A DNA stretch of 64,000 nucleotides from assembly GCA_036630325.1 (NCBI GenBank), contig CP142728.1, forward strand, positions 806,001-870,000, in the 5' to 3' direction. The notes beneath the pieces are model-generated. The model was not told the origin of the DNA and did not search any database. It saw only the letters and a list, made by a program, of their open reading frames with translations. Every line of letters starts with the position of its first letter. Position 1 is the first letter of the stretch. Positions 26,601 through 56,655 of the stretch are shown here, one piece after another. Source of the DNA: Vairimorpha necatrix (taxonomy: Eukaryota). Both the position numbers and the translations under genes were made by a program.

Positions 26601-26788
26601 AGCTATCAGTAAGTGAAGAAATAAAAATATATTTTAAGAGCATATGTACTTTATACTATATAAATTTATATACAATTATACATGATGTATTTATTTTTAT
26701 TATACAACACAAACTAACCATGAAAAAGTTTATATAATATTTTTATTATGTATAAGTCGACGTCAAATTGGCATCTATCATTATATAG

Positions 26789-30352: not shown

Positions 30353-30405
<53 letters not shown>

Positions 30406-30504
30406 TTAATTGGTGACGCGCATGAATGGAGCAACGAGATTCCTACTGTCCCTACTTACAATTTTGTGAAACCACGAGACAAGGGAACGGGCTTGTTATT
30501 TATC

Positions 30505-30536
<32 letters not shown>

Positions 30537-30971
30537 TTAGTATGTTTTAATAAATATTCGGTATATTGTAGAGAGGTGGGAGAAGTATTGTGAAACCACT
30601 AGTATGTTTGAATATTTATTTATTAGAATATATGGGGAGTTTGGCTGGGGCGGTACAGCTGTTAAAAAGTAACACAGCTGTCCTAAGGTAGATGAATGAT
30701 GGATGGTAACCATCAGTTTATTATAAGGGAATAAATCTGCTTTACTTTATGCATATGACTGTATTTAGTAGGGAAACCTTGGCCTAGCGATCCCAATTAC
30801 ATTCATTATGTATTGGGTGATTGAAAAGTTACCACAGGGATAACTGGCTTGTAGCAGGCAAGCGATCATAGCGACTCTGCTTTTTGATTCTTCGATGTCG
30901 TCTCTTCTGATCATCGTAGTGTATATGTTACGAAGTGTTGGATTGTTCACCCGGTAATGAGGAACGTGAGA

Positions 30972-31013
<42 letters not shown>

Positions 31014-31245
31014 TAAGTATTTTTGAGTGAACTTTGATAGTACGAGAGGAACTCTAAGTGATGACCACTGGTAGTGCGATTAACTATTAAGTTATGTTGC
31101 TTAGCTACGTCGTTTCGATTAAGGCTGAAGGCCTCTTAAGCCTGAAGCGTAGCTCAAAGATACATTTAGGAGAATACTACTCTTTTAAGCAGAACTGTAA
31201 GAATGAAGGTGTATGCCGACATTTTGAGGTTACTGCTTTTTTTGT
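28752..31245 (+). rRNA. Large-subunit rRNA with fused 5.8S
   Basis: ACGATGAAG 5.8S motif, GAACTTAAGCATATC, ACCCGTCTTGAAACACGGACC, TTAAGGTAGCCAAATGCCTC, sarcin-ricin loop AGTACGAGAGGAAC. The 3' end is uncertain (31240-31300). Confidence 0.95.
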
Positions 31246-31300
31246 ATGTAAAGTAGGTGTTGTATACTATAAGAGAGCGTACTTTATGTCTAGATTTGGT

Positions 31301-31368
31301 ACCCTTACAAGAGAGAGTCTACGTCGCGGAGGGCGGGACCGATGTTTTTTAACTAGGTGCAGATCTCT
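31301..31368 (+). ncRNA. HDV-like ribozyme, degenerate copy
   Basis: Homolog of 38377-38445 with changes in P1 (ACCCTT/GGAGGGC), P3 (GAG/CGC) and L3 (TCTACGT). Confidence 0.7.
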
Positions 31369-31374
31369 ACCAAA

Positions 31375-34271
31375 ATGAAGGGTAAAGTAAGAGAAAGCAG
31401 GAGCGAGCTCAGTAGAGCAAAAAGTGACCACTTTGGTGGTCCAAACAACGATTTAGATACAGAAATGTATTTAAAACAACAAACTAAGCATGTATATGCT
31501 AGTAAAAGTTTCCCAAGTGTTACTTTCAAAAATGATGGAGAAATGGGCGCAACGGTCAGAACCCGGACTTTCCATAATATTTTACGTACTGAATCCGGGT
31601 ACTGACCGTAAAGTGGGGAAATGTTTTTTACGAACCATATCCCCAAGAGTCGAAATTTTACAGATTTGTTTAAATTTCATTCGCATTAACATTTCTTGAG
31701 TTATAAACATTTTTGTTTTTTAGATGATTTTTTCAAAAATATTTTACCCTTATGGTATGTATGGAGCCGCTTGACAGTAGGTCGAAAATATTCCAAGACC
31801 CACATGAGGAAATATGTTGGTTAGTGGATGAAAATCTACTAAAAACAACAATGGAATGTACGAAATGTCCTGGTATAATGATATTAACACCGGACGATTC
31901 GTACATGAACTGCCACCGGTTTAAGTGTAGGGGGAAGACTGGATGTGGAACATCAATCGGAGTTTTTGATAAAACTTCATTTTCTAATCCCCGAATACCT
32001 ATACATAATTATTTGTATATTCTGTATTCGTTCACTGAAAAGCAGTCTACACTAAACCTAAACAAAAATTCCCGGGTGTCTGCTTCCAGTGTCTTCAGGG
32101 CTAAAAAAAAATATACGAAGCACTGAAAAAAGAAAATCTCAAACACCAAAAAAAAAATTGGAGGATTTGAAGAAGTGACACAGCCGATGAAACGGTTATA
32201 GTAAAGGGGAAGTTTGTCAAAGCTCCAACGGAAAGATATGACACAGTCAAAAACTGTGTGTGGTTGGTAGGGACGATAGACGAGCGAACGTTAGAACTGA
32301 GAATCGAAATAGTACCTAACCGGACTATACAGACGATGACTCGGTTTTTTGTAAAGTATATAAAAAACGACACTACATGCATAACTGATGGTCATAAATC
32401 TTATCCCGCTGCAGTAGAATCTATCAACGGTGATCATCGCGTTGTAATTCATGATGAAGGCTTTAAAACAAAGCAGTAGAGACCACAAACTTAATAGAAG
32501 GTGTTTGGTCACATCTTAAATGTGATATAATAGCTAGAAAAGGGATCAAAGAAAGTGCTATCCCTGATTTTTTGGAAGAATTTAAGTGGAGAAGAAGATG
32601 TGCAATTTATAAAAACATCAAAAGTTCAAGAGAGTTCTTCATTGAAATTATCAAAGTTTTCTTAGAATAAAATGGTTTTTTATTATTATTATTTTTTTTC
32701 GTTTCTCTCCAAGGGGGGACCCTTAGAGAGAAAAAAAGTCCGGGTTCTGACCGATGCGCCGAGAAATGAAATATTTTCTCAAGAAAATCAAAATTCTTTC
32801 AGAAAGAATTAATAAAAATGATATTTTGGACACATCAAAAAAAGATAACAATAAAGATCTTATTGATCTTAAAAGATACATATCTAGCACTACTGAATTA
32901 GTATTGATTCAGCAGACATATTTGGAGCTCTTCCATGACAAGCTAGAAAGACAAAACATCAAACTAAAAAATTTGATTAAAAATAATGTGATGGATGACA
33001 GTGATCAAATTACTGAATCATCAAAAAACAAATTTGAGATAATGATTGAGAATCACTCAAAAGAATGTGTAGAACAAAAGGATTATAACTCCGATGTTCC
33101 AAATGATACCAGTAGCGAAACCCTTCAGTTAGCTACTGGAAACAATGATATTTCTAAATTAGAAATCATAAATGAAGATGTTTTAATTAATGTCAAAAAT
33201 ATCGTGTCTGCTGTCAAAGTAGAAGAAGAAGATCGATTGTCAGAAGATGGCAAAAGAAAATGTATAGGTGTCTCAAATGCGTCTACAAATACTATAATTA
33301 ATAAAAATATTAAAACAAAAGATGTTAAGCTAGACTTAGCTTCCATTAATAAAAAAGCAGTAGTTAGACATCTGTCAACTATCTCTGCTATTATAGCTGG
33401 TAAAAGAAAAGCTCCTAAGAATGGAGTAAAACTTTACCATACAAATGAAGACGGATGGACATCTGTCAAACACACATTCAAGCCTAAAGTCCAGATAGAC
33501 TTGAAGAAAAACAGAAGTGGCAAAACCACGCATAAATCCAACTTTATTAGATTTAAATCACTTAAAGTAGAATCCGGTGGCAATGTAAAAGTGCCCAAAA
33601 ATTCTATTCATGCAGCTTTACATGAGAAAAACAAAATATCTACTAAAGACTATAAAAAAGAAAGATTACAAAATCATAAAATAAATTTTACTCAAAAAAT
33701 GAAGAATAGAAAAAATGAGAAATGTCAACAAAAAAGAAGTTCAGTTTTACCAAAGAAAAACTGGGCCAAAGAGCTATCAGACGAAGCTCTTATGAAAATT
33801 ATAAAGGATGGTAGAATTATTTCCAATTGTAAGTTTAGGATAGCTCTTGTGTCTGGACTCGGATTGAAAGGGAAACCTCAATCTAGAGACGCTTGGGCAG
33901 CCTTAGCTGATGTGGAAAATAAAGATATACCACTTATAAAACAATTTAAAGATTCGGAAGTAGTACTTCTGATGATTAGAGAACACGTGTGCCAAAAGGT
34001 ACTAAGCAAGATTAAAGAAAAGTTCGGAGGTTCTAATATCTGCGATGAAGTTAATTTCTTTATCGACTTTTTGTCTTTAACAAAAACAACTGTTCTAGGA
34101 GAGCTGCAAAGACTCTCTGGAACGCATAAAAATTTTGTACCGCTTGTAAAAGCATGTTGGTACATAACTAAAGAATTAAATAAAGAAAAGCCAAACCATG
34201 GTTCTTTCATTTATTTAGAAAATATGATGGGTGAGCCTGCCCGAGAATCTAAGGACTTTAACAATGAATAA
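31375..34271 (+). pseudogene. LINE ORF1 (basic, coiled-coil-like), split by a Merlin insertion at 31546-32760
   Basis: MKGKVRES...KNDGEM joins KYFLKKIK... once the transposon and one TSD are removed; matches the uninterrupted start of copy 2 at 39333. Confidence 0.9.
31546..32760 (+). mobile_element. Merlin (IS1595/ISXO2-like) DNA transposon, frameshifted transposase about 31752-32670
   Basis: 26-bp TIR GGCGCA(A/T)CGGTCAGAACCCGGACTTT; 8-bp TSD GAGAAATG (31538-31545, 32761-32768); ADET, WLVGTIDE, ITDGHKSY and IEGVWS motifs. Confidence 0.93.
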
Positions 34272-37200
34272 AGTATCTTTGTTAAAGTCCTGTTATTATA
34301 GGAAATTATTTTCCTATAACAAGAGTGATATTTTCAAATCTCTAAATAAAAAAACGCATAATCCAATTGGATTTACTCAGATTAAAAATACTTTCCAAAC
34401 GACAACGAGATTGAAAAGTCTCAAGTATTTTTTCATTAGAAAGAATATGTGGTGGAAGAAAGTACAAGAACAATATTGTATTGTCAAGATACAAAGAATT
34501 CCTTATGGAGTGAAAGATCTCCTCAAAGACTTATGTAAGAAGAACTCTTTTTTGGAGAATTCCATTATTACAGCAAGAAAATATAGACGAAGGGACACGT
34601 CATTCACAAAAATAATAGTTGAAAAACTACATGCAAAGTTATTGATTAAGACAGTTAAAGCTAAAGGCTTTAAAGTTTTAAATGATAATAGAAAAGAACT
34701 AGAGAAATCTAGTAAAGTAAATAAAAAGACCAAAGAGAACATAAAACTCTTAAGTCTAAACATTAACCATCTCTCTAATAAGAGATTAGAACTTGAGTTT
34801 CTTCTTAAGAAGGAGAAACCAGAAATTATGTGCTTACAGGAAACTTGGAGACAATCTACAAGACCTTTAAAACTTGAAAAATACACTACAGTTGAAACAC
34901 CTAGTGGTGGAAAAAATAAACCAGGATTAATAACTCTGGTTAGAAATAATGGAGCGATCAGATGTTCCAAAAAAGGAACCGACTCAAACATTCTGCAAAC
35001 TGTAGTTGAGTTTAGTTCAGCAGGCAAATGGATTAAGTATTTAGTCTTAAATGTCTACATACCACAAAACAAGGATCTCAAAAGGGAGACCTTGGCCAGA
35101 TTATTTTCTCTTTTAGAAAAAGAGAATTTCAGAAATAACTATAGTGAGATCATAGTGATGGGAGATATGAATATGCAGAGTTCTAGTCTCAAGAAAAAAT
35201 TAAGTGTAGTTGGTTTGCCAGTTACAATTAAATATAACAGCAAAGATGGTACAAGGATTCTCAAAGATGGTAAAAGATCTAAGAGGAAAATTGATACCAT
35301 CTTTCGACTAAAAAGTAATGATAATGAGAAGATCATTATATCCAAGTCTTGGGTATTAAGTGATCACTTAGTGCTCAAAAGAAAAATTAAACTTGCCGTT
35401 GATAAGATCTCAGATCAACTAGTTTATGATAAGAAAATGCTGGAAAATCCAAAAGTGATTAAAAAGCTTAAAAAGAAGTTGTGTAATCAACAATTAAACA
35501 TGAATAATCTTCCTGAGATTATTCAAAAAGTTTGTACATCTTTGAAGATTTACAAAAAGAGAAGATTCCATACTGGACTTACAATGAGATGGAGATATTT
35601 AAAAGTCTTCAAAGAAAAACGTCTAGCAGCAAGAGCTGTTATGAAAAATTACAATGAAATCAACTCAATTAGATTCGAATATCTCAAAAAGAGAGTAGAC
35701 GAAACTAAAAAGTTGATTCGCAAAGATAGATCGAAACTTTGGGCTTTAAGAGGAATAAGGTTCTTTAAAAGTAATAGATCCCGAGAATTCTGGCAATGGC
35801 TGAAAAATAGAAGTGTCTCCATTCGTTTGGATCAAGTGGCTCTAATTGACCACAATAAGATTCTTCAGACTTGCCGAGCAAAGAAGCTAGAAATAGCGAA
35901 TAAATTTTACGCTGATTTGGCGTCAGAGAATGATATAGATGTCAATGTCTATGATAAAGTAGATCTTGTTGATCTTCCCCCAGAGATAACAGATGAAGAA
36001 TTTTTATCCGCACTGAAGAAATGTGGAAATAACAAAGCAGCCGGTCCTGATGAGATTCCAACCGAGCTATACAAATACTTACTGACTAGAGCAGTAAAAG
36101 ATAAATTCTTTAAATTCATGCTACATGAATTTAATAAATATATTTGTGGAAATAGTCCTCCTGAATACTGGAGCATGGCAAACATGATTTGCCTCCACAA
36201 AAAAGGAGATGAGACAGATCTGAATAATTATAGGGGAATCTCTTTAATTAACACAATTAGTAAGATCTATCTCAAGATAATAAATGACAGGTTAACTCAA
36301 TTTGTCGAAGAACAAGATATACTCTCTAGATACCAAGCAGGATTCCGAGCAGGTGAAGAGTGTATGAATCAGATTACATCTCTACTAGAAATAGTGAGAA
36401 GAAGAGAATTCAGAGGCCTGAACACAATAATGTGTTTCATTGACTTTGAAAAAGCTTATGATAATGTAAGTCATGACTTATTATTTGAGAAGCTTACAAA
36501 ACTTAATATCCCATTGTATTTAATCAATACAATAAAGGATATTTATAAATATACCACCATGCGTGTGAAAATTGGCGGTGACACGTCAAGTGGTTATAAC
36601 TACAGAAAAGGAGTGAGACAAGGGTGCCCTTGTTCTCCAATGCTATTCAATATATTCATCAATGATATTTTTGACGGCATAGAAGGAGTTTTGATCCCAA
36701 GGTCAAATACGAGAGTTCCGGGACTGATGTTCGCAGATGATATTGTTGTCTTCGGAAACAACATTGATGATCTTAATAATAAGATCAATAGAATTTCTAA
36801 TTGGGCAGTTAATAACAGAATGAAGATTAACTGCTCAAAAAGCGGAGTATTAGAATGGGCTGCTCATTCTAACATACAAGAATTCCGAAGTTTGTATTCT
36901 CTCAGTACAGACTTTGGTGTGATTGAGGAAGTCACTGAATACAGATATCTAGGTGTCTTAACTAAAAGAAACACGCTAGAAGAACACTTGGTCAAAGACG
37001 CAGCAATGCGTGGCAAGAAAGCCTTGGACGCCTTGATGCCCAAGTTGATGAATGGCAGCATCAATCTCTACTTCAAGGCGATCTTAATAAAATGTGTACT
37101 AGTACCCACACTAATGTATGGCAGTGAATTGTGGGGAATGTCAAGTACAAGAGCAGGTAAGATTAACAGGATCTTAAGAAAATCTATCAGAATGATATTC

Positions 37201-37956
37201 AAAAGAGTATTAGTTCCACTAGATAGAGTAATGGACGAGTTCAGTATCGAACGAATTCATATACAAGCAGCTCTAAGTAGATTTAGAGCATACAACAAGT
37301 GGAAACACAATAAGACAATCATATCGGATATAATCTCAATCAATCCGAAAGAAAGAAAAACTACCTGGTGTTCAAGAACACAAAGATGGTTAAAACGATT
37401 TGTCGGCAACGATTATGAATCAAGTGATAGTAGATTTATCACTACAAAAATAATTGATGTACTAAGAAGTCGAAGAACTCTAAATACTTCTTTAGCTGCA
37501 TCAATAGCAAATCAATATGACATAAGAAATTCACAAATAAAATATGTCATGAACAAAATAAATAATAGAAAAATTAGAACATATACTAGATTGAGATGTA
37601 ATCTAGTAAAGTGGTCCTCAGCAATAGCATATTCAAAAAGAATACCAATGAGTTATAGAAACAAATGCTTTTTGTGTGATGGACCACAAGAAAATTTAGA
37701 ACACTTTCTGCTGGAGTGCGTCTGTTTAACTGACATTAGATCATCTTTTGAAAATAAACTGCCTCTACTGACTTGTTCAAAAACAAATAACCAAGAAAAA
37801 ACCAAATTACTTCTTGGTAATAAAATCGGATTAAGAAACAACCCAGAAAAGATAAAAGAACTTTGTTGGACTATAGAGTTCTTAGATAGAATGGTTGTCT
37901 CTAGAAGAATTATATTTGAAAAGAAACTTAAGGAGATAACGAAACAAGGTAATTAA
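34264..37956 (+). CDS. LINE ORF2: AP endonuclease + reverse transcriptase + CCHC zinc finger (intact, about 1230 aa)
   Basis: SLNINHL, CLQET, VMGDMN, IDTIF, SDH; KAAGPDEI, FIDFEKAYD, QGCPCSP, FADD, YRYLG; CFLCDGPQENLEHFLLEC. ATG at 34264 overlaps the ORF1 end (ATGAATAA). Confidence 0.96.
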   Translation: MNKVSLLKSCYYRKLFSYNKSDIFKSLNKKTHNPIGFTQIKNTFQTTTRLKSLKYFFIRKNMWWKKVQEQYCIVKIQRIPYGVKDLLKDLCKKNSFLENSIITARKYRRRDTSFTKIIVEKLHAKLLIKTVKAKGFKVLNDNRKELEKSSKVNKKTKENIKLLSLNINHLSNKRLELEFLLKKEKPEIMCLQETWRQSTRPLKLEKYTTVETPSGGKNKPGLITLVRNNGAIRCSKKGTDSNILQTVVEFSSAGKWIKYLVLNVYIPQNKDLKRETLARLFSLLEKENFRNNYSEIIVMGDMNMQSSSLKKKLSVVGLPVTIKYNSKDGTRILKDGKRSKRKIDTIFRLKSNDNEKIIISKSWVLSDHLVLKRKIKLAVDKISDQLVYDKKMLENPKVIKKLKKKLCNQQLNMNNLPEIIQKVCTSLKIYKKRRFHTGLTMRWRYLKVFKEKRLAARAVMKNYNEINSIRFEYLKKRVDETKKLIRKDRSKLWALRGIRFFKSNRSREFWQWLKNRSVSIRLDQVALIDHNKILQTCRAKKLEIANKFYADLASENDIDVNVYDKVDLVDLPPEITDEEFLSALKKCGNNKAAGPDEIPTELYKYLLTRAVKDKFFKFMLHEFNKYICGNSPPEYWSMANMICLHKKGDETDLNNYRGISLINTISKIYLKIINDRLTQFVEEQDILSRYQAGFRAGEECMNQITSLLEIVRRREFRGLNTIMCFIDFEKAYDNVSHDLLFEKLTKLNIPLYLINTIKDIYKYTTMRVKIGGDTSSGYNYRKGVRQGCPCSPMLFNIFINDIFDGIEGVLIPRSNTRVPGLMFADDIVVFGNNIDDLNNKINRISNWAVNNRMKINCSKSGVLEWAAHSNIQEFRSLYSLSTDFGVIEEVTEYRYLGVLTKRNTLEEHLVKDAAMRGKKALDALMPKLMNGSINLYFKAILIKCVLVPTLMYGSELWGMSSTRAGKINRILRKSIRMIFKRVLVPLDRVMDEFSIERIHIQAALSRFRAYNKWKHNKTIISDIISINPKERKTTWCSRTQRWLKRFVGNDYESSDSRFITTKIIDVLRSRRTLNTSLAASIANQYDIRNSQIKYVMNKINNRKIRTYTRLRCNLVKWSSAIAYSKRIPMSYRNKCFLCDGPQENLEHFLLECVCLTDIRSSFENKLPLLTCSKTNNQEKTKLLLGNKIGLRNNPEKIKELCWTIEFLDRMVVSRRIIFEKKLKEITKQGN

Positions 37957-38376
37957 TATGAATAATTAAAAAAATGAAGATCTAGAAATAGAAGAAAGAG
38001 ACGTTGATTTATTAACAAGAAGACTTATATTTAATTATATTTGACCTGGGAGAGGTCGGGCATGATACTGATGCTGTATTGTTCCGCTGAACTGAGTCGT
38101 GTTCTTAAATGGTGTATTGAGCCAGGCGTTTTCGTTTTTCATTAGACCCATGAAAGTGGGTCTCTAGTCATATTATGACTAAGGATGTGTCCTATGGGAA
38201 CAAACTTTTCTCCTACAAGCGAGGCCGTTAAGGTATGCTGGCGTGTAAGCGCACTTATTGATGATTTTTTCTTTATTAGTGGAGTTTTTGGTGCTTTGGA
38301 GGCTTTTCTTCGTTTTGCTGATTCTGTCTTTTTTTACAATAAACAATTTTAATTTTTTTTTTAGGTGCAGATCTCT

Positions 38377-38445
38377 ACCCTCCACAAGAGAGCGTCCACG
38401 TCGCGGAGGGTGGGACCGATGTTTTTTAACTAGGTGCAGATCTCT
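38377..38445 (+). ncRNA. HDV-like self-cleaving ribozyme (intact nested double-pseudoknot fold)
   Basis: P1 ACCCTCC/GGAGGGT, P2 AGAGA/TCTCT, P3 GCG/CGC, L3 TCCACGT, P1.1 CC/GG, P4 ACC...GGT, J4/2 GCAGA with the putative catalytic C at 38437. Confidence 0.88.
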
Positions 38446-38872
38446 AAGTCTTACCAACCTTCGGCTGCTGGTTGGTAAGTAGGGTCAGCTATACTCTAGG
38501 GGTGGGAGACCCATTGCTGGTGAGAAGAACGCCGTTAACTTTCGAGTAATTCTTCATATTTTTAACCTGGGAGAGGTTGGGCATGATACTGAAGCTGTAT
38601 TGTTCCGCTGAACTGAGTCGTGTTCTTAAATGGTGTATTGAACCAGGCGTTGTGTTTTCGTCAGGTCCGCGAAATATGTAGTCAGAGATGACTAAGGATC
38701 TGTTACCTACGGGAACAAATTTTTCTCCTACAAGCGAGGCCGTTGAGGTATGCTGGCGTGTAATCGCAATTATTGATGTTTTTCTGGTTGGTGGAGTTTT
38801 TGGTGGCTTGGTGGCTTTTCTTCGTTTTGCTGATTCTTTCTTTTTTACAATAAACAATTTTATTTTTTTTTT
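38446..38872 (+). mobile_element. Non-autonomous SINE/SIDE-like unit 1 sharing the LINE 3' tail
   Basis: About 120-nt head, then ACCTGGGAGAGG...ACAATAAACAATTTT(T)n homologous to LINE 3' UTR 38044-38362; 441-bp periodicity with unit 2. Confidence 0.85.
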
Positions 38873-39315
38873 AGGTGCAGATCTCTAAGTCTTACCAACC
38901 TTCGGCTGCTGGTTGGTAAGTAGGGTCAGCTATACTCTAGGGGTGGGAGACCCATTGCTGGTGAGAAGGACACCGTTAACTTTCGAGTAATTCTTCATAT
39001 TTTTAACCTGGGAGAGGTTGGGCATGATACTGAAGCTGTATTGTTCCGCTGAACTGAGTCGTGTTCTTAAATGGTGTATTGAACCAGGCGTTGTGTTTTC
39101 GTCAGGTCCGCGAAATATGTAGTCAGAGATGACTAAGGATCTGTACCTACGGGAACAAATTTTTCTCCTACAAGGGAGGCCGTTGAGGTATGCTGGCGTG
39201 TAAACGCAATTATTGATGTTTTTCTGGTTGGTGGAGTTTTTGGTGGCTTGGAGGCTTTTCTTCGTTTTGCTGATTCTGTCTTTTTTTACAATAAACAATT
39301 TTATTTTATTTTTTT
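38873..39315 (+). mobile_element. Non-autonomous SINE/SIDE-like unit 2
   Basis: Near-identical to unit 1; begins with AGGTGCAGATCTCT; followed by AGTCTTACCAAC. Confidence 0.85.
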
Positions 39316-42300
39316 AGTCTTACCAACACCCTATGAAGGGTAAAGCGCAACAAACCAGGAGCAAGCTCAGTAGAGCAAAAAGTGACCACTTTGGTGGTCC
39401 AAACAACAATTTAGATACAGAAATGTATTTAAAACAACAAACTAAGCATGTATATGCTAATAAAAGTTTCATAAGTGTTACTTTCAAAAATGATGGAGAA
39501 ATGAAATATTTTCTCAAGAAAATCAAAATTCTCTCAGAAAGAATTAATAAAAACGATATTTTCGACACGTCAAAAAAAGAAAATAACAAAGATCTTCTTG
39601 ATATTAAAAGATACATATCTAGCACTACTGAATTAGTATTGATTCAGCAGACATATTTGGAGCTCTTCCATGATAAGCTAGAAAAACAAAATATCAAATT
39701 AAAAAATTTGAAAAAAAATAATCTGATGGATGACAGTAATCAAATTACAGAATCAACAAAAAATAAAATTGAGATGATGATAGAGAATCACTCAAAAGAA
39801 TATGTAGAACAAAAGGATAATAACTCCGATGTTCCAAATGATACCAGTAGCGAAACCCTTCAGTTAGCTACTGGAAACAATGATATTTCTAAATTAGAAA
39901 TCATCAATGAAGATGTTTTAATTAATGTCAAAAATCTCCCATCTGCTGTCATAAATCTCGACACTGCTGTCAAAGTAGAAGAACAAGATAAATTGTCAGA
40001 AGATGGCAAAAGAAAATGTATAGATGTTTCAAAGGCATCTACAGATATTATAATTAATAAAAATATTAAACCAAAAGATGGTAAGCTAGATATAGCTTCC
40101 ATTAACAAAAAAGCAGTAGTTAGACATCTGTCAACTATCTCTGCTATTATAGCTGGTAAAAGAAAAGCTCCTAAGAATGGAGTCAAGCTTTTCCATATAA
40201 ACGAAGACGGATGGACATCTGTCAAACACACATTCAAGCCTAAAGTCCAGATAGACTTGAAGAAAAACAGAAGTGGTAAAACCACAGATAAAACCAACTT
40301 TAATAGATTTAAATCACTTAAAGTAGAAACTGGTGGCAATGTAAAAGTGCCTAAAAAGATTAATCATGAAGCTGTAAAGAGAAAAGATATCATTCATAAA
40401 AAAGATCATGAAAAAAGAAGATTACTAAATCAGAAAATAAATTTTACAAAAAAAAACGAAGGACAGAAAAAATGAGAAATGTCAACAAAAAAGAAGGCCA
40501 GTTTTACCAAAGAAAAACTGGGCCAAAGAGCTAACTGAAGAAGCTCTTATGAAAATTATAAAGGACGGTAGAATTATTTCCAAATGTAAGTTTAGGCTAG
40601 CTCTTGCTTCTGGACTCGGATTGAAAGGGAAACCTCAATCTAGAGACGCTTGGGCAGCCTTAGCTGATGTGGAAAATAAAGATATACCACTTATAAAACA
40701 ATTTAAAGACTCGGAAGTAGTACTTCTGATGATTAGAGAACACGTGTGCCAAAAGGTACTAAGCAAGATTAAAGAAAAGTTCGGAGGTTCTAATATCTGC
40801 GATGAAGTTAATTTCTTCATCGACTTTTTGTCTTTAACAAAAACAACTGTTCTAGGAGAGCTGCAAAGACTCTCTGGAACGCATAAAAATTTTGTACCGC
40901 TTGTAAAAGCATGTTGGTACATAACTAAAGAATTAAATAAAGAAAAGCCAAACCATGGTTCTTTCATTTATTTAGAAAATATGATGGGTGAGCCTGCCCG
41001 AGAATCTAAGGACTTTAACAATGAATAAAGTATCTTTGTTAAAGTCCTGTTATTATAGGAAATTATTTTCCTATAACAAGAGTGATATTTTCAAATCTCT
41101 AAATAAAAAAACGCATAATCCAATTGGATTTACTCAGATTAAAAATACTTTCCAAACGACAACGAGATTGAAAAGTCTCAAGTATTTTTTCATTAGAAAG
41201 AATATGTGGTGGAAGAAAGTACAAGAACAATATTGTATTGTCAAGATACAAAGAATTCCTTATGGAGTGAAAGATCTCCTCAAAGACTTATGTAAGAAGA
41301 ACTCTTTTTTGGAGAATTCCATTATTACAGCAAGAAAATATAGACGAAGGGACACGTCATTCACAAAAATAATAGTTGAAAAACTACATGCAAAGTTATT
41401 GATTAAGACAGTTAAAGCTAAAGGCTTTAAAGTTTTAAATGATAATAGAAAAGAACTAGAGAAATCTAGTAAAGTAAATAAAAAGACCAAAGAGAACATA
41501 AAACTCTTAAGTCTAAACATTAATCATCTCTCTAATAAGAGAGAAGAACTTGAGTTTCTTCTTAAGAAGGAGAAACCAGAAATTATGTGTTTACAAGAAA
41601 CTTGGAGACAATCTACAAGACCTTTGAAACTTGAAAAATACACTGCAGTTGAAACACCTAGTGGTGGAAAAAATAAACCAGGATTAATAACTCTGGTTAG
41701 AAATAATGGAGCGATCAGATGTTCCAAAAAAGGAACCGACTCAAACATTCTGCAAACTGTAGTTGAGTTTAGTTCCGCAGGCAAATGGATTAAGTATTTA
41801 GTCTTAAATGTCTACATACCACAAGACAAGGATCTCAAGAGGGAGACCTTGGCCAGATTACTTTCTCTTTTAGAAAAAGAGAATTTCAGAAATAACTATA
41901 GTGAGATCATAGTGATGGGAGATATGAATATGCAGAGTTCTAGTCTCAAGAAAAAATTAAATGTAGTTGGTTTGCCAGTTACAATAAAATATAACAGCAA
42001 CGATGGTACAAGGATTCTCAAAGATGGTAAAAGATCTAAGAGGAAAATTGATACCATCTTTCGACTAAAAAGTAATGATAATGAGAAGATCATTATATCC
42101 AAGTCTTGGGTATTAAGTGATCACTTAGTGCTCAAAAGAAATGTTAAACTTACTGTTGATAAGATCTCAGATCAACTAGTTTATGATAAGAAGATGCTGG
42201 AAAATCCAAAAGTGATTAAAAAGCTTAAAAAGAAGTTGAGTAATCAACAATTAAACATGAATAATCTTCCTGAGATTATTCAAAAAGTTTGTACATCTTT

Positions 42301-42898
42301 GAAGATTTACAAAAAGAGAAGAGTCCATACTGGTCTTACAATGAGATGGAGATATTTAAAAGTCTTCAAAGAAAAACGTCTAGCAGCAAGAACTGTTATG
42401 AAAAATTACAATGAAATCAACTCAATTATATTCGAATATCTCAAAAAGAGAGTTGACGAAACTAAAAAGTTGATTCGCAAAGATAGATCGAAACTTTGGG
42501 CTTTACGAGGAATAAAGCTCTTTAAAAGTAATAGATCCCGAGAATTCTGGCAATGGCTGAAAAATAGAAGTGTTTCCATTCGTTTGGATCAAGTGGCTCT
42601 AATTGACCACAATAAGCTTCTTCAGACTTGCCGAGCAAATAAGCTAGAAATAGCGAATAAATTTTACGCCGTATTAGCGTCAGAGAATGATATAGATGTC
42701 AATGCCTATGATAAAGTAGATCTTGTTGATCTTCCCCCAGAGATAAAAGATGAATAATTTTTATCCGCACTGAAGAAATGCGGAAATAACAAAGCAGCCG
42801 GTCCTGATGAGATTCCAACCGAGCTATACAAACACTTACTGACTAGAGCAGTAGAAGAAAAATTCTTTAAATTCATGCTACATGAATTTTTTAAATAT

Positions 42899-45800: not shown

Positions 45801-46906
45801 CTATGCCTTCTGATTTCACTGTACCGCCCACTCCTACTATATTCAGGGTCTCTTTTCTTGGATTCAGACCCAATAGTTGGGCCTTCTTTTTATTAATGCA
45901 ATTAATTTCCGCTCCCGTGTCAATGAGCGCAGCAATCTTTTCTCTCCCTGAAAAAAAATTAATCCTTGCTCGGACATCCGATAAATTATCGTTTTTAGCC
46001 ACTCTACCTATCTTTAGGATTAATGAAGAATTTGTCTGTACTGCTTTCTTGGGGACAGTTTTATATTCTTTCATTTCTTGACAGGTTACTTTATTCTGTG
46101 GCTTTTTAAAAAAAGTTTTCCTTTTCTTTAGGTATTTATTTATTAAAAAATCCTTTTCTTCTACGAGTTCTAGTAACTCTATCCACTCTTTGGTTTCACT
46201 GATCGCCTCCTTTAATATCTCGGGGGAGTTTCTTCCAATCGCAATCTTAGATCTCTCAAAGTGCTCAATGCTTCCTTTAGCACACCTTTTTAGGTCATAA
46301 GCGTAACTCAAGATGTCGCTTTCCTTCGGACCCTCTACGTATAGGTGCATGAATAGATCTGTTACGTCTTCCACTAGTTTTTTTTTTTAGGTATTTTTTA
46401 TTAAAGTGGGATTTGAATGTCTCGTAATCTACAATCTCCTCGCCCTCAAAAGCTTTAAAACATTTCAACGCTTTGCCTTTTAGTTTTGACTTGGCAATAT
46501 CTAGCGTCTTCGCTTGAGAGTACACATCTTCAATTTCTCGAAATTGAGACAGAAAGTCTTCGGCTTTGTTCAGATCTTCGCCGGTAAATTCTAACCATCT
46601 GTTCTGAAGACATAGTTTTTTCATTTGAGAAAGGATGTTGTCGAGATCATCGCTCTTATCCTCATCATCGTTACCACCATTGTGGTCTGTTGGTTTCCCA
46701 ACAGACCGAGAAGAATGTTTTAAACCATATTTTTTATTATCCTTCATACCCTTCTGGGCATGAATTTCTTTTATGTTTGTCGGAGGGGAAATATACAATA
46801 TTTTCCCTCCAAAAACATTATTGGGAAAAGGAAGATAATACTTATAGAATAGTATTCTCTGGTCTCCAGGGTAATCTTAGGACCACTGGAGAACTGTTCC
46901 TTGACA
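42899..46906 (-). mobile_element. Ty3/gypsy retrotransposon, 226-bp LTRs, TSD AATAT, disrupted gag-pol
   Basis: LTRs 42899-43124 and 46681-46906 (TG...CA); AATAT at 42894-42898 and 46907-46911; PBS TGGTGGTAACG; PPT 43125-43138; IDTGA, YLDD and integrase motifs. Confidence 0.95.
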
Positions 46907-49089
46907 AATATATTTGTGGAAATAGTCCTCCTGAATACTGGAGCATGGCAAACATGATTTGCCTTCACAAAAAAGGAGATGAGACAGATCTGAATAATTA
47001 TAGGGGATCTCCTTAATTAACACAATTAGTAAGATCTATCTCAAGATAATTAACGACAGATTGACACAATTTGTTGAAGAAAATAACATCATCTCTAAAT
47101 ACCAAGCAGGATTAGAGAAGGCTAAGAATGTATGAACCAAATTACTATCCTACTTGAAGTAGTAAGAAGAAGAGAATTCAGAGGCGTGAACACAGTGATG
47201 TGTTTCATAGACTTTGAGAAAGCTTATGATGATGTAAGTCATGACTTATTATTTAGTAAGCTAGAAAATCTAGATATCCCCAGGTATTTGATAAATACAA
47301 TAAAGGATATCTATAAAAGCACCACCATGCGAATAAAAATCGTCGGGGAAACATCAAGTGGCTATAACTACAGAAAAGGGGCGAGGCAGGGGTGCCCCTG
47401 TTCTCCAATGCTGTTCAATATATTCATAAGCGATCTTTTGATGACATAGATGGTGTCTTGATTCAAAGATCAAATACAAGAGTTCCAGGACGGATGTTCA
47501 CCGATGATATCGTTGTCTTTGGAAACAACATTGATGATCTAGAAAATAAGATCAAAAGAATTTCGAAATGGGCAGTTGACAACAGAATGAAAATTAACTG
47601 CAAGAAGAGTGGAGTATTAGAATGGAATGTTAAATCTAATATTCAAGAAATTAGAAGTTTGTATTCCATCAATACAGACTTTGGCATGATTGAAGAAGTC
47701 ACAGAATATAGATATCTATGTGTTTTAATAAAGGAAACGCACTTGAAGAACATTTGGTCAGAGACGCGGCAATGCGTGGATCGAAACCCCTAGACGCCCT
47801 GATGCCTAAGTTGATGAATAATAGCATCAACCTCTATTTAAAGGCGATCTTAATAAAATGTTTACTAGTACCCACACTAATGTATGGTAGTGAATTGTGG
47901 GGAATGTCAAGTACAAGAGCAGGTAAGATTAACAGGATCTTAAGAAAATCAATGAGGATGATATTCAAACGAGTATTAGCTCCCCTAGATAGATTATTGG
48001 ACGAATTCAGTATCGAACGAATTCATATACAAGCAGCTTTAAGTAGATTTAGAGATACAACAAGTGGAAACACAATAAGACAATAATATCGGATATAATT
48101 GCAATCAAACCGAAAGAAAGAAAAACTACCTGATGTTAAAGAACACAAAGATGGTTAAAACGATTTGTCGGCAACGAATACGAATCAAGTGATAGTAGAT
48201 TTATCACTTCAAAAATAATTGATGTACTAAGAAGTCGAGAACTCTAAATACTTCCTTAGCTGCATCAATAGCAAATCAATATGACATAAGAAATTCACAA
48301 ATAAAATATGTCATGAACAAAATAAATAATAGAAAAATTAGAACATATACTAGATTGAGATGTAATCTAGTAAAGTGGTCCTCAGCAATAACCAATTCAA
48401 AAAGAATATCTATGAGTTATAGAAATAAATGCTTTTTGTGTGATGGACCACAAGAAAATTTAGAACACTTTCTGCTAGAGTGCGTCTGTTTAACTGACAT
48501 TAGAACATCTTTTGAAAATAAACTGCCTCTACTGACTTGTTCAAAAACAAATAACCAAGAAAAAACCAAATTACTTCTTGGTAATAAAATCGGATTAAGA
48601 AACAACCCAGATAAGATAAAAGAACTCTGTTGCATAAAAGACTACTTAGACAAGATGGTTGTCTCTGGAAGAATTATATTTAATAACAAACTTAAAGAGA
48701 TAACAAAACAAGATAATTAATATAGAATAATTAAAAAATGTAGATCTAGAAATAGAAGAAAGAGGCGTTGATTTATTAACAAGAAGACTTATACTTAATT
48801 ATATTTGACCTGGGAGAGGTCGGCCATGATACTGATGCTGTATTGTTCCGCTGAACTGAGTCGTGTTCTTAAATGGTGTATTGAGCCAGGCGTTTTCGTT
48901 TTTCATCAGACCCATGAAAGTGGGTCTCTAGTCATATTATGACTAAGGATGTATCCTATGGGGACAAACTTTTCTCCTACAAGCGAGGCAGTTAAGGTAT
49001 GCTGGCGTGTAAACGCGATTATTGATGTTTTTCTTATTGGTGGAGTTTTTGGTGGCTTAGTGGCTTTTCTTCGTTTTGCTGATTCTGTC

Positions 49090-52000
49090 TGTCACGGGAC
49101 AGCTCTCCAGTGGTCCTAAGCCTACCATGGAGGCCAGAGAATACTAGTATATAGAAAGTCTCCTCTTTATTTTAATCATGTTCTGGAGGGAAAATGTACC
49201 ACATTTTCCCGCCCATAAACATAAAAGAAAATCATCCCTAGAAGGGTATGAAGAAATCTAATAAACAGTTTAACAGTAAAGATTCTTCGAGGACTGTTGG
49301 ACATACAACAGTCCAAAATGGTGGTAACGGTAGCGGGGATGAGAACAACAGCTTTAATCAGTTGGCCTCACTTATGAGAAAGTTATGTCTGGGTAATAAA
49401 TGGCTTAAGTTTAATGGAGAAGATCCAAAACAAGCGGAAGAGTTTATTAACCAATTTAGAGAGATCGAAGACGTATATCCTCAAGATAAAACTTTAGACA
49501 TTGCCAAGTCTCAACTGAAAGGCAAAGCACTTATCTGGTTTAAAGCATATGAGGGGGGGGGAAATCACGGATTATAAGTCGTTCATTCGATACTTTAAAA
49601 AAAAAATATATGAAAGAGAAACTTACAGAAGACACAACCGACATGTTTATGCATCTCTATGTCGAAGGCCCAAAAGAAAACGATATTCTTAGTTACGCTT
49701 ATGTCCTGAAGACATGTTCAAAAAGAAACGAAGAGTACTTCTTGAGATCAAAGATAGCAATCGAGAAAAACTCCCCAGAAACGATAAAGGAGTCAATTGC
49801 AGATACAACAGACTGGATGGAGTTACTAGAACTCTTGGGAAAAAACAAAATATTATTAATTACTACTTAAAAAAGAAAAGAAATTGGTCGAGAATCCCAC
49901 GTAACGAAGCGCCCTTGCAGGAAAAGAAGTATACTAAAACTTATACGGAAAAATCAGTGAATCCTAAGACTGCATTACACCTGAAGGTAGGTAGAGTGGA
50001 GACCCCAAAACAAAAGATATTCGGCCAAGGATAAAACTCTTTTCAGAAAAATCAACCATTTCAGCGCCCATTGATACGGGAGCCCAGATTAATTTGATGA
50101 GTAAAGACACAGTCCAACTCTTAGGTCTAGACACAAAGAAAGGCATACTGAACATAGAAGGAGTAGGTGGGAGTGTTAAATCAAAAGAAATGGTAAAATT
50201 TATGGTCAAGAGATCTATAAACAAGAAAAACGACATGTTAAAAGCGTATGTTGTTGATAATTTACAAGAGGACCTTATTATCGGCATTGATGATGCAATT
50301 GCTTTGAATTTGTTAAAAATGCTTGACAAAATGGAAAACGCAGTGATAACGAAAACTATTCTCACAACAACTACAGAAGAGATTGGGACCTTTACACCAG
50401 ATATCGGAGATGAAACAATGCTTTCTGACGAAAAAGAAAAATTCAATAAATTGATTTTGAAGTACTCAGAAATTTTCCACAATAAAGACCCCCAATCAAG
50501 TTTAGACATTGAACACGCGATAGAATTAACAAGTGACGTCTCGGAAATTAAAAATATTCAATACAGAAGATCGCCTGAACAAAATAAGATCATAGAAGAT
50601 AAAGTTCAAGAATTTTTGAAGAAAGGATTTATTGAGAACAGTGATTCGGATTATACTTCCCCGGTCGTGTTGGTCAAGAAACCTGACGGTGATTTAAGAT
50701 TTTGTATTGACTATAGAAGACTCAATAAAATCACGAAAAAAATGATCTACCCAATCCCTCTCATATAAGAAACTATCGAAGAAATCCAAGGAGCTTCTAT
50801 ATTTACGGTATTAGACTTAGAATCAGGATATCACCAAATAAGAATTCGCCCCAAGGATAGATACCTAACGGACTTTAGGAGTAGATCGGGAACTTTTCAG
50901 TGGGTCAGGATGCCATTCGGGCTAGTAAATGCGGCCTTTACATTTCAAAAGATAATGAACTCAATAATATCTCCATACTTACACAAATTCGTACAAGTAT
51001 ATCTAGATGATTTAATGATATATTCAAAATCAATTAAAGAACATCTAAAACATTCAGAGGCAGTATTTAAAATATCAAATAAGTTGAAACTGAAAGTTAA
51101 TAAAAAAAATGTAGAATCGCTAAGAACTCAGTTAAATTTCTAGGGTATATGATAGATAAAGACGGGATTAGCATACCTTTAGAGCAGCAGACAAAATGTT
51201 TACAGTTAAAAACACCAACGACTCTCAAAGAAACTAGAGCCTTCATTGGCTTTACCAACTATTTTCGGAAATTTGTAAAAAACTATACAGATATCATGGC
51301 TCCAATTTATGAATGCTTAAAAAAGGGGAAATTTGAGTTCTCCGAAGATGCGAAAGAAAGTGTATCTAAGATAAAGCAAATTATCACGAGCTCGCCCGTT
51401 CTTAAATTACCAGATTTTAACAGAAGGTTTATATTATATACTGACGCATCTAATTTGTATATAGGAGCAACATTGATGCAGGATTACGAAGGAATTGAGA
51501 TGCCCGTTTATTTTATATCAAGAAAACTAAATACGGCAGAGATTAATTATACGGTTACTGAGAAGGAGTGTCTTGCCATAATATGGAGCATAACGCAATT
51601 CAGAATATACCTTACAAATACGTTTACGATCCGAACAGACCACCAAGCACTTAAATGGCTACTCGGTTTTAAAGAGAGCACAGGAAGGTTAATGAGGTGG
51701 ATCCTAACTTTGGAAAATTACTCATACGAAATTGAATATATTAAAGGAAAGGATAACGTTATTGCTGATGGATTGACCAGATTTGTACACACTGTAAACA
51801 AGAACAAGGTACCAGAAATACCCATAGAAAATCGGAAAGAGCTGATATTAAAATGTCACGAAGAATGTGGACATGGAAGTCTATTTCCAACATATACACT
51901 AATACTTAACGAAGCACAGTGGAAAGGGATGTACTCGGATATAAAGAGTGAAATAGAAAAATGCCATGTATGTTTGAAATTCAATCCCAAAAGATTACCT

Positions 52001-53097
52001 AAAGAACATCATAGAATTCGTCTAAAGGAACCATTTTCCCTAGTGGTTATCGATATCGTAGGTCCATTACCTAAATCAGAAAACGGAAAGGTGTATTTAA
52101 TAGTAGCTACAGACTACCTAACCAGATGGTGTGAAGCAAAGGCCGTGAAGAATAAGACGGCAAAAATGGTAGCTAAATTTATTTTCGAAGAGATTGTATG
52201 TAGACATGGGCCTCCAAACGAACTACTATCAGACAGGGGACTTGAATTCTTAAACATTACAGTCAAAGAAATATGTAGAATCTTCAATACACGAAAATCT
52301 TTTACTTCGTCTTATCATCCACAATGTAACGGTACAGTAGAGAGAACTAATCAATCTCTTGTAGCGAAACTGGCCAAAATTACAAACGGAAGATGGAAGG
52401 AATGGGACGAATACCTAGAGCTGGCTCTATATGCTTATCGAATCTCTCCAAGAAAAATAACAGGGCATTCCCCATTTGAATTGTTGTATGGACGTAAACC
52501 GCAGACATGGGAACAGATAAGTGAAGAGTTAATACCAATAGAACCCAATTTATTAATATTCGAAAGGCTAAAACGGACCCGAGAAATTATGCTTCAAGCA
52601 GAAAGAGAAGCACGGGAAAGAGAAATGGGAAGTGTGAAAGAACAAACATTGAAGGTAGGTGATATAGTATTGAGACGTAAACCTCCCATTAATATAAAAA
52701 ATAAATTAGACAGTAAATTTGAAGGTCCATATACTATAACAAAAATCGGCAGGAAAGGCGCGTATGAAATAGTAAGTCCAAATACCGTGGTTTTCTCAGT
52801 GAATCAGAAGGATCTAAAGAAGATGGATGTTGAAATGGAAACATGGGAGCCTCTAAAGGAGGGGGGAGTGTCACGGGACAGCTCTCCAGTGGCCTTACGC
52901 CTACCCTGGAGGCCAGAGAATACTAGTATATAGAAAGTCTCCTCTTTATTTTAATCATGTTTTTGGAGGGAAAATGTACCGCATTTCCCCGCCCATAAAC
53001 ATAAAAGAAAATCATCCCTAGAAGGGTATGAAGAAATCTAATAAACAGTTTAACAGTAAAGATTCTTCGAGGACTGTTGGACATACAACAGTCCACA
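49090..53097 (+). mobile_element. Ty3/gypsy retrotransposon (sister family), about 228-bp LTRs, TSD CTGTC, disrupted gag-pol
   Basis: LTRs 49090-49317 and 52869-53097; CTGTC at 49085-49089 and 53098-53102; PBS TGGTGGTAACGG; PPT AAAGGAGGGGGGAG; IDTGA, YLDD, RNaseH and integrase. Confidence 0.95.
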
Positions 53098-53136
53098 CTG
53101 TCTTTTTACAATAAACAATTTTAATTTTATTTTTTT

Positions 53137-54159
53137 GGCTAAAGTAACCTTTAGCACACAATTTTCGATATAGGGTTTTTTTTGTTTTTTTTGCCCCTTT
53201 TTTTCAAAAATGGAAGAAAGAAAATGTGGAGGAAGAAACAAAAATAAAAATTAAAACAATAAATTTATTAATGCTTCAAACACAGAACTAGAATAGTTTC
53301 TTTGGATCATGTACCTAAATAAATAAAGCTTGGCACTGCATGATGACCTATTTCTATTAAAAATAGCATTTTTGAGGGAACGCCAATTACCTTCGATGGT
53401 ATTGGTATGAACACCAGTATTGGGATCTCGAAAGTGCAACGAGTAATTAACCATATGGTGTTCTTTAAATATGGTCCTCAAAGAATGATAAGCCTTCCAC
53501 ATATCACTATGTATAGTACTTTTTGTACTTACAAATTTTAATAAATGACCCGTAAGAGTTTCTTTATCTCTTTTTTTAATATATAACACTAAAATTCTAC
53601 GTTTGATGGTACGTTCTATCATACCGAAACACCAAAAACCCTTCACTAATTTTCCTCTGTTATGTTTATTCTTTCCTATTTTAGTTTCATCGATTTCTAC
53701 AACAACATCTTCCCCGCCTATCTTACTAAAAGAAGATAAATATTTGTCATAAATGTTTATTTCTTTTAATTTTGTTAATATAAAGGACATAGACTTTTTG
53801 GTACAACCTAACATTTGACAAATATATTTACGTGGATAACCAAGAATCCACAGATTAAGTATTTGTAATATTGTTATATGATTAAGGTGAGAACATTCAA
53901 AGAAAGAATCTTTCCATATAGAAAATGACTTTTTGCAATCCTTCCAAGTACATATAAATAAGCCTTTCCCTTTACGTTGTACTCGAATCCTAGATGTACA
54001 ATTATCACAAACAGTAGGTTGTCTTTTTATTGATAATTCATTATACATTGCTTCAGTTCATCTCTTGTCCAAATTCTTTCTTCCATTTTTGAAAAAAAGG
54101 GGCAAAAAAAACAAAAAAAACCCTATATCGAAAATTGTGTGCTAAAGGTTACTTTAGCC
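53137..54159 (-). mobile_element. Merlin DNA transposon with about 86-bp TIRs, TSD ATTTTTTT
   Basis: GGCTAAAGTAACCTTTAGCACAC... inverted at both ends; TSD at 53129-53136 and 54160-54167. Confidence 0.95.
53251..54048 (-). CDS. Merlin/ISXO2-like DDE transposase (open, 265 aa)
   Basis: N-terminal CxxC..CxxxxC, IGGEDVVVEIDETK, WCFGMIER, IHSDMWKAY, HTNTIEGNW. Confidence 0.92.
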   Translation of the reverse strand: MYNELSIKRQPTVCDNCTSRIRVQRKGKGLFICTWKDCKKSFSIWKDSFFECSHLNHITILQILNLWILGYPRKYICQMLGCTKKSMSFILTKLKEINIYDKYLSSFSKIGGEDVVVEIDETKIGKNKHNRGKLVKGFWCFGMIERTIKRRILVLYIKKRDKETLTGHLLKFVSTKSTIHSDMWKAYHSLRTIFKEHHMVNYSLHFRDPNTGVHTNTIEGNWRSLKNAIFNRNRSSCSAKLYLFRYMIQRNYSSSVFEALINLLF

Positions 54160-54168
54160 ATTTTTTTT

Positions 54169-54410
54169 GTCGTGTAATTAAATGGTGTATTGAACCAGGC
54201 GTTGTGTTTTCGTCAGGTCCGCGAAATATGTAGTCATAGATGACTAAGGATCTGTTACCTACGGCAACAAATTTTTCTCCTACAAGCGAGGCCGTCGAGG
54301 TATGCTGGCGTGTAAACGCAATTATTGATGTTTTTCTTTATTGGTGGGTTTTTTGGTGGCCTTCTTCGTTTTGCTGATTCTGTCTTTTTACATAAACAAT
54401 TTTATTTATT
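54169..54410 (+). mobile_element. 5'-truncated copy of the SINE/SIDE-type tail
   Basis: GTCGTG..TAAATGGTGTATTGAACCAGGCG..TCAGGTCCGCGAAATATG matches units 1 and 2 rather than the LINE variant; ends CATAAACAATTTTATTTATT. Confidence 0.85.
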
Positions 54411-56509: not shown

Positions 56510-56655
56510 CACTACAGGCGAGGCCGTTAAGGTATTCTGGCATATAAGGCAATTACTAATGATTTTTCCATTTAGGTGGAGTTTTTATCTTCTTTGAGCT
56601 TTTCTTCCTCAGTTGATTGTGTCTTTTTTACATAAATATTCTAATTTTATTTTTT
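56510..56655 (+). repeat. Old diverged copy of the LINE/SINE 3' tail
   Basis: CTACAGGCGAGGCCGTTAAGGTATTCTGGC...GGTGGAGTTTTT...GTCTTTTTTACATAAA..(T)n. Confidence 0.75.

Follow-up and report, generated by a model that had tools for sequence, protein, structure and literature searches.

A LINE array with a candidate HDV-like ribozyme directly behind the LSU rRNA gene of the microsporidian Vairimorpha necatrix

The R2 elements of animals are promoterless retrotransposons tied to ribosomal DNA (rDNA), in which a 5' ribozyme resembling that of hepatitis delta virus (HDV) frees the element from the rRNA co-transcript and the start of the open reading frame (ORF) lies close behind it (PMC6765202, PMC3774820). 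The 5' junctions of R2 vary where the cut falls at the element's own end (PMC6765202, PMC3774820), and a role of the ribozyme in translation has been proposed (PMC6765202). Baggins and RTE, two groups of promoterless long interspersed nuclear elements (LINEs) of animals, are freed from host or neighbor transcripts by HDV-like ribozymes (PMC6765202). We analyzed a 64-kb stretch of the Vairimorpha necatrix genome (GenBank assembly GCA_036630325.1, contig CP142728.1, positions 806,001 to 870,000, forward strand; hereafter, the window), in which an array of one retrotransposon family lies directly behind a large-subunit (LSU) rRNA gene. The reading that we favor, with moderate confidence, is that this family consists of a promoterless LINE with an apurinic/apyrimidinic endonuclease (APE) and a short partner, that both are freed from read-through transcripts by an HDV-like ribozyme, and that they insert at T-runs and build arrays.

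We established the layout of the array by repeat finding, self-BLAST, and direct reading of the letters; positions below count from the first letter of the window. The array begins approximately 39 nt past the LSU end and runs head to tail. It opens with Rz1 (31301 to 31369), a degenerate 69-nt ribozyme copy that is 93% identical over 71 nt to a second copy, Rz2. LINE1 follows (31370 to 38362), recognized by its ORFs, Pfam domains, PDB match, and T-runs, and ending in ten T residues (T10, 38353 to 38362). Between this T-run and Rz2 (38377 to 38446), an HDV/CPEB3-like ribozyme candidate, lies a 14-nt copy of the ribozyme 3' end (38363 to 38376). Then come short non-autonomous unit 1 (38447 to 38872), which also ends in T10; a 15-nt remnant of the ribozyme 3' end, recognized by direct reading (38873 to 38887); short non-autonomous unit 2 (38888 to 39315), with a head 98% identical to that of unit 1; and LINE2 (39316 to 53136), which has no ribozyme and aligns with LINE1 in two blocks, at 95% and 90% identity. 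A 5'-truncated tail unit (54161 to 54410), 81% identical to 38096 to 38357, directly follows the LINE2 T-run, and older, diverged tail fragments (77% and 88% identical) lie at 56496 to 56691. All these pieces are on the + strand, as is the rDNA, and the elements nested within them are of mixed orientation. Every family copy found by self-BLAST in the window lies downstream of the LSU and points in the same direction. The units share a common 3' end and have 5' ends at many positions; they have no long terminal repeats (LTRs), and one exact target-site duplication was found.

An earlier first-pass annotation, made from the letters of the window, had proposed the order ribozyme, LINE1, T-run, ribozyme, two short units, LINE2, and truncated unit, with every part co-oriented with the rDNA and the array starting within about 60 nt of the LSU. 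Repeat finding, self-BLAST, and reading bear out that order, the LINEs and short units are all on the + strand, and the measured distance falls within the proposed limit. The tails had been taken for pure (T)n; they proved instead to be T-rich runs broken by A. The same annotation had described the classical R2 site as empty, and the R2 target motif TTAAGGTAGC indeed occurs a single time in the window, uninterrupted, at 30381.

The distance between the array and the rRNA gene depends on where the LSU ends. The LSU rRNA gene (28837 to 31262, + strand) was identified with Rfam RF02543 (1340.8 bits), and the match to RF02540 ends at 31261. The eukaryotic LSU model is drawn out to 31358, across Rz1, and the archaeal LSU model stops cleanly at 31261, past the last helix that closes the molecule. 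The stretch 31301 to 31369 has a second copy 7 kb downstream and is therefore not rRNA; given this recurrence and the end of the archaeal model, we place the LSU 3' end near 31262, the most likely position on these alignments. This leaves a stub of 3' spacer of 38 nt between the LSU end and Rz1 (31263 to 31300, + strand, by direct reading). The array thus lies outside the mature rRNA, so the rRNA gene is undisrupted.

Rz2 can be drawn as the nested double pseudoknot of HDV-like ribozymes: all five helices fit, and all 23 proposed pairs, in six helix segments, can form. P1 pairs 38377 to 38383 with 38405 to 38411 (7 bp), P2 pairs 38387 to 38391 with 38441 to 38445 (5 bp), and P3 pairs 38392 to 38394 with 38402 to 38404 (3 bp), enclosing a 7-nt L3 (38395 to 38401). 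P1.1 pairs 38396 and 38397 with 38412 and 38413 (GG), and P4 is a hairpin at 38415 to 38435. J4/2 reads CAGA (38437 to 38440), with a candidate catalytic C at 38437, and L3 contains G38400; for both residues the letters are present and the function is predicted. The predicted cut lies 5' of A38377; with a P1 of 6 bp, it would shift to the 5' side of C38378. In described HDV-like ribozymes, the cut site is set by an approximately 7-nt P1 pairing directly after P3/L3, the G in L3 and the C in J4/2 matter, and R2 ribozymes have converged on the same active-site letters (PMC3774820). As read from its letters, the Rz2 layout fits the P1 rule, the L3 G, and the J4/2 C.

We condensed this fold into a strict descriptor (7-bp P1, 5-bp P2, 3-bp P3, 7-nt L3 starting with UCC, GG in P1.1, and CNRA before P2'). 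Rz2 was its sole match on both strands of the window, and a single match appeared in 2 of 40 dinucleotide shuffles (mean 0.05). The unconstrained minimum free energy (MFE) fold of Rz2 consists of exactly P1, P3, and P4 and leaves both P2 strands free. In a search of 141 nt around Rz2, the best Rfam match was CPEB3_ribozyme, which scored 18.3 bits on the correct strand (E = 0.0093); in its P3-L3-P3' core, Rz2 is one base off the CPEB3 consensus, and P1 is kept with other letters. We consider the full-length 5' end of the family a good candidate for an HDV-like ribozyme. Relative to Rz2, 3 of the 23 pairs are unpaired in Rz1 and one is gapped, P1 is weakened, P3 has a mismatch, and L3 has a C-to-U change. 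Rz1 fails the strict descriptor, and the sequence around it had no Rfam match at E ≤ 10. Rz1 looks like a decaying copy, in keeping with the interrupted ORF1 of LINE1. Two further ideas were dropped: a degenerate 22-nt core pattern matched five loci in metagenome contigs, all with 68 to 72% G+C and unrelated flanks, which we regard as chance matches; and a circularly permuted ribozyme using the upstream 14-nt copy was rejected on geometry, by inference only.

The boundaries of the unit headed by Rz2 bear on where its template RNA began. A string of T10 plus 15 nt is identical at 38353 to 38377 and 38863 to 38887. We read this repeat as a target-site duplication, with 38363 to 38376 as its left copy for the unit 38377 to 38872. 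Because the identical string flanks it, the inserted unit would start at A38377, which is the first base of P1 and the predicted cut. Within the window, this duplication-bracketed start would be the best evidence for a 5' end of the template RNA made by the ribozyme. We suggest that the duplicated 14 to 15 nt stem from insertion into a T-run that preceded a unit 5'-truncated inside its ribozyme, so that the remnant at 38873 to 38887 may be either that 5'-truncated ribozyme or the right target-site duplication. When the last 16 nt of the spacer stub (31285 to 31300) were compared by BLAST with the 15 nt before Rz2 (38362 to 38376), 10 aligned positions matched. The likeness of the sequences before Rz1 and Rz2 could reflect a target preference of the endonuclease, an old decayed remnant, or chance.

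The proteins of the LINE place it among the APE-type non-LTR retrotransposons, as the first-pass annotation had proposed. ORF2 of LINE1 (34231 to 37956) is intact, with 1,241 codons. Pfam recognized an Exo_endo_phos domain (residues 174 to 319, 2.3e-5) and an RVT_1 domain (residues 657 to 909, 5.6e-39), human L1 ORF2p in the PDB matches residues 169 to 913 (E = 2.7e-33), and the C-terminus carries a C-x2-C...H-x4-C motif. These matches support an element that combines APE with reverse transcriptase (RT). Among solved endonucleases, the APE domain matched by sequence only those of L1; together with the C-terminal motif of ORF2 and the lack of zinc knuckles in ORF1, this is a hint that the element may be L1-like rather than R1-like. 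The closest relatives of ORF2, 55 to 56% identical, come from Vairimorpha and Nosema and fall in clusters with V. ceranae members; in the protein atlas, ORF2 fell only in generic endonuclease-RT clusters. No further ribozyme copies came from a search of viral contigs with the V. ceranae ORF2 homologue or from a search of prokaryote genome contigs with an ORF2 alignment.

ORF1 comprises 562 aa, encoded in LINE1 by 57 and 505 codons on either side of a nested transposon. It has no zinc knuckles, and it matched no Pfam family and no PDB sequence at E ≤ 10. Two full-length homologues were found. One is a V. ceranae protein, also of 562 aa and 49% identical, which shares the start MKG...NNLDTEMYL with ORF1 of LINE2. 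The other, P0022, is a V. necatrix gene model that its source names an ATP-dependent RNA helicase; it is a LINE chimera, in which an ORF1 C-terminus is followed by the first ~180 residues of ORF2 and then by a second ORF1 starting with MKG, and the helicase name is almost certainly wrong. In LINE1, a 5-nt spacer separates Rz1 from the ORF1 ATG at 31375, close to where the first-pass annotation had put it. LINE2, in which ORF1 and ORF2 are both broken, begins at the first base after the ribozyme position and has a 17-nt leader before its ATG at 39333. Because the V. ceranae homologue begins alike, the ATG directly behind the ribozyme is a conserved start.

The short units, of approximately 495 nt, have no coding capacity and have their ends in common with the LINE. 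According to BLAST, each consists of a 110-nt head, found only twice in the window, and a tail like the LINE 3' untranslated region (UTR); the tail is 86 to 87% identical to the last 327 nt of the LINE (38036 to 38362), and the first 12 nt of the head are also the first 12 nt of the LINE2 leader. Unit 1 carries the whole ribozyme, which thus heads both the LINE and the short unit. From this composition, the short units are best described as non-autonomous, internally deleted partners that keep both ends of the LINE. R2 is reportedly accompanied by short, internally deleted elements that likewise keep the 5' ribozyme and 3' UTR of their parent. We also considered the short-unit head as a derivative of tRNA, 5S rRNA, or small nuclear RNA and rejected this, as no Rfam family matched it.

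To compare the window with other copies of the locus, we aligned contigs of two public runs, X1 and X2, with it; the joints given here are among those listed by that alignment. In an X1 contig, the LSU end leads to a ribozyme of the Rz2 type and on to the head of the short unit; over 128 nt there are 0 differences. This LSU junction has five extra bases relative to that of the window, so the contig comes from another locus or strain, in which the ribozyme fold behind the LSU is intact. In an X2 contig, the same LSU flank, within ~3 nt, joins a unit cut back to its tail. Three 5' ends are therefore found joined to the LSU flank within ~3 nt: a ribozyme without its first bases (window), a whole ribozyme (X1), and a tail unit (X2). 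Such variation resembles the pattern of site-specific LINEs, and one ancestral array rearranged among paralogous rDNA loci would look similar.

The X2 contigs also contain joints between T-runs and truncated units, those listed lying at 34732, 35047, 35126, 36228, 38431, 38433, 38443, and 38487; four of these truncation points fall in the LINE body, three in the 3' part of the ribozyme, and one in the short-unit head. Because T-runs in X2 join truncated units, the family builds tail-to-head arrays in other genomes too. Taken together, the junction data favor insertion at the T-run tails of earlier copies at least as strongly as targeting of the rDNA 3' spacer. In one X2 contig, the ribozyme abuts the ATG directly. 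At window position 38375, joints in both X1 and X2 show a form of the ribozyme 5' end in which five additional bases duplicate the beginning of P1. It follows the LSU flank in X1 and a T-run in X2, and it may point to an alternative register in which P1 can pair or to a different cut site.

The life cycle that we propose runs as follows. The family would have no promoter of its own and would be transcribed by read-through, either from the rRNA gene approximately 39 nt upstream or from upstream members of the array. Termination by RNA polymerase I (Pol I) occurs downstream of the mature rRNA 3' end, and with the array only ~39 nt from the LSU, read-through by this polymerase is plausible. At the extreme 5' end, the ~70-nt HDV/CPEB3-like ribozyme would cut at its own 5' edge and leave an uncapped RNA that begins with the ribozyme. 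This RNA would be translated from the ATG 0 to 17 nt behind the ribozyme, and given that this ATG is conserved and so close, the ribozyme may also serve translation, as proposed for R2. The RNA would end in a U-rich tail. At the nicked target, this tail would pair with the A-run that faces a genomic T-run, and the A-run would prime reverse transcription. Such priming would make the tails of earlier copies preferred targets, from which arrays would grow, and an RT that frequently halts when it meets the tight fold of the ribozyme, or within that fold, would leave most copies without one.

Several observations count against this proposal. The descriptor was composed after the sequence had been seen. 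The nested MFE is no better than that of shuffles (z = -0.29), and the CPEB3_ribozyme score is below the gathering score of 35; an Rfam E-value search over 24.5 kb listed no ribozyme, the match emerging only at 141 nt. Between the two copies, Rz1 and Rz2, no pair changed on both sides, so none is compensatory; each of the changes in Rz1 either weakens or disrupts pairing. The sequence before Rz2 is the ribozyme's own 3' end, which offers duplication or a template switch as an alternative origin. At this LSU, the adjoining copy is the degenerate Rz1, and the LINE next to it has an ORF1 (31375 to 31537 and 32761 to 34271) split by a nested transposon. In P0022, the junction between family pieces falls within another copy and shows no trace of rDNA. 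Of the array units between 31301 and 54410, two of six have a whole ribozyme. The idea of an array punctuated by ribozymes, as the first-pass annotation put it, holds in part: Rz2 is a good HDV-like candidate, most units lack a whole ribozyme, and the copy next to the LSU is degenerate.

It is possible, if unlikely, that the ribozyme-headed LINE is real and is not an rDNA element at all. It would then target T-runs throughout the repeat-rich genome, mainly its own tails, and its position beside the LSU would be a chance landing, which could have been copied along with duplicating dispersed rDNA units or reshaped by recombination between array members. Most X2 junctions listed run from a T-run to a truncated unit, the sole clear target-site duplication lies in a tail and not in the spacer, and the family junction in P0022 is inside another copy. 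The X1 form could stem from a further, paralogous rDNA locus whose array has been rearranged, and V. necatrix has 18 to 20 dispersed rDNA loci, which are neither tandem nor subtelomeric (PMC10759460). A chance landing sits less well with three different 5' ends at the LSU flank within ~3 nt, as in site-specific LINEs, with the resemblance between the spacer before Rz1 and the sequence before Rz2 (10 of 16 positions), and with the placement of every family copy in the window on the downstream side of the LSU, in a single orientation.

A different doubt concerns catalysis. The 70-nt element might be a conserved, structured 5' leader, acting as an internal promoter or translation element, that fits the HDV-like outline by chance. 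We consider this quite improbable: the fold lacks none of its elements, with the CPEB3-like L3 letters, the P1.1 GG, and the J4/2 C all in place, and the first base of the inserted unit coincides with the predicted cut, whereas RNA from an internal promoter is not expected to begin at the first base of P1. In its favor are the Rfam score under the threshold, the lack of covariation between the two copies, the ordinary fold energy, and the post hoc descriptor; nor is a promoter role far-fetched, as the 77 nt of L1Tc act as both promoter and ribozyme (PMC3383444). A third explanation assigns the ribozyme to the rDNA unit itself, as a processing or termination signal of the host 3' spacer that the LINE and short unit acquired by read-through copying. 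The LSU 3' flanks of the window and of the X1 contig do both carry the ribozyme ~39 nt after the LSU, but the LSU-side copy in the window is decayed and the intact one lies 7 kb off at the 5' end of a unit, the X2 LSU flank is joined to a tail unit without a ribozyme, and LINEs are themselves known to carry HDV-like ribozymes at their 5' ends (PMC6765202, PMC3774820). We regard this origin as highly doubtful, the least probable of the explanations considered. Scarcely more credible is a fixed ribozyme ~39 nt behind the LSU in most Nosema and Vairimorpha rDNA units, making for the host a co-transcriptional cut that ends the pre-rRNA. If that were true, the ribozyme, donated by or common to the LINE family, would do the job of RNase III in yeast Pol I termination, and the 3' spacer would house an element that the host tolerates or even profits from, unlike the gene-breaking R2.

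Four other transposons interrupt the array. A 1.2-kb DNA transposon with terminal inverted repeats (TIRs) lies in ORF1 of LINE1 (31538 to 32760; strand not assigned) and is absent from LINE2; it has 26-bp inverted repeats (31546 to 31571 and 32735 to 32760) and an 8-bp duplication, and it is missing from contigs of both public runs, where 31537 joins 32761. It carries a 124-codon Cys-rich ORF (31752 to 32126) without a Pfam match, and internally deleted forms of it are among the joints listed for X2 contigs (32154 to 32265, 32287 to 32499, 32287 to 32509, and 32558 to 32641). LINE2 houses two LTR retrotransposons, one on the - strand (42899 to 46905; 228-nt LTRs and ORFs with Pfam rve and aspartyl protease domains) and one on the + strand (49091 to 53097; ~230-nt LTRs and an ORF with Pfam RT_RNaseH and rve domains). 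Both are 4,007 bp long, in opposite orientations and each with a partial gypsy-type gene set, and they may be deleted members of one family. A Merlin/IS1595-type DNA transposon (53137 to 54160, - strand; Pfam DDE_Tnp_IS1595, 2.3e-15) sits in the terminal T-run of LINE2; its terminal inverted repeats, found by reading, are long and T/G-rich, and a T-rich duplication flanks it.

The remainder of the window is also rich in transposons. It is AT-rich (G+C ~30%), and the V. necatrix genome has 28.3% G+C and 50% repeats (PMC10759460). The small-subunit (SSU) rRNA gene lies at 27476 to 28722 (+ strand; microsporidian model, Rfam RF02542, 1057 bits), and at the gathering level Rfam recognized rRNA and no other family in the window. 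Upstream of the rDNA are a gypsy-type LTR retrotransposon polyprotein (915 aa) and a gag-like ORF (20361 to 23658, - strand), and downstream are integrase fragments (60459 to 61847, + strand). Some 500 nt upstream of the SSU, at 26778 to 26966, is a ~190-bp repeat (87% identical) with inverted copies at 12990 to 13168 and 14483 to 14671, on either side of an ORF at 13102 to 14463; it may be an LTR or a transposable element of the miniature inverted-repeat type (MITE). No host genes were recognized among the ORFs scanned, and the rDNA unit stands within a transposon-rich stretch. The nearest named proteins are from V. necatrix, V. ceranae, V. apis, and Nosema granulosis.

For transposons in Nosema rDNA, a review of rDNA-transposon associations lists only MITEs, and our full-text literature searches found, by title or abstract, no report of a ribozyme-bearing retroelement in Microsporidia. 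The strategy is known in animals and trypanosomes and has apparently not been described before in Microsporidia. If confirmed, the locus would carry the ribozyme-released LINE strategy into a lineage of parasites that are related to fungi and have dispersed rDNA, in a variant parked in the 3' spacer that leaves the rRNA gene unbroken. It would simply explain how a LINE can exploit Pol I transcription without costing its host anything. A small natural HDV-like ribozyme, its core convergent with the letters of CPEB3, would be a further gain, and T-rich tails combined with arrays that target tails would unusually mirror the way in which L1 primes on A-tails.

Among the known systems, the mammalian CPEB3 ribozyme (Rfam RF00622) is the best match to the fold, with the same helix order and a core that differs by that one base; it is intronic, single-copy, and not linked to a retroelement, and the score obtained here is under the gathering threshold. 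R2 has one ORF, a restriction-like endonuclease, and a fixed site inside the 28S gene, whereas this LINE has two ORFs and an APE endonuclease; given these two features and the intact 28S site, the element does not belong to the R2 clade. The pair L1Tc and NARTc of Trypanosoma cruzi is an APE-type LINE and a short partner with the same 5' HDV-like ribozyme, as is the candidate pair described here (PMC3185411, PMC3383444). The first 77 nt of L1Tc are also an internal promoter (PMC3383444), and L1Tc elements are dispersed, whereas those here have T-rich tails and form arrays. On the proposed reading, the family would operate in the manner of R2 and of L1Tc with NARTc. The tails of L1Tc and NARTc are A-rich, and what sets the V. 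necatrix family apart is its host lineage, a location in the 3' spacer and not within the gene, its T-rich tails, and its tail-targeted arrays.

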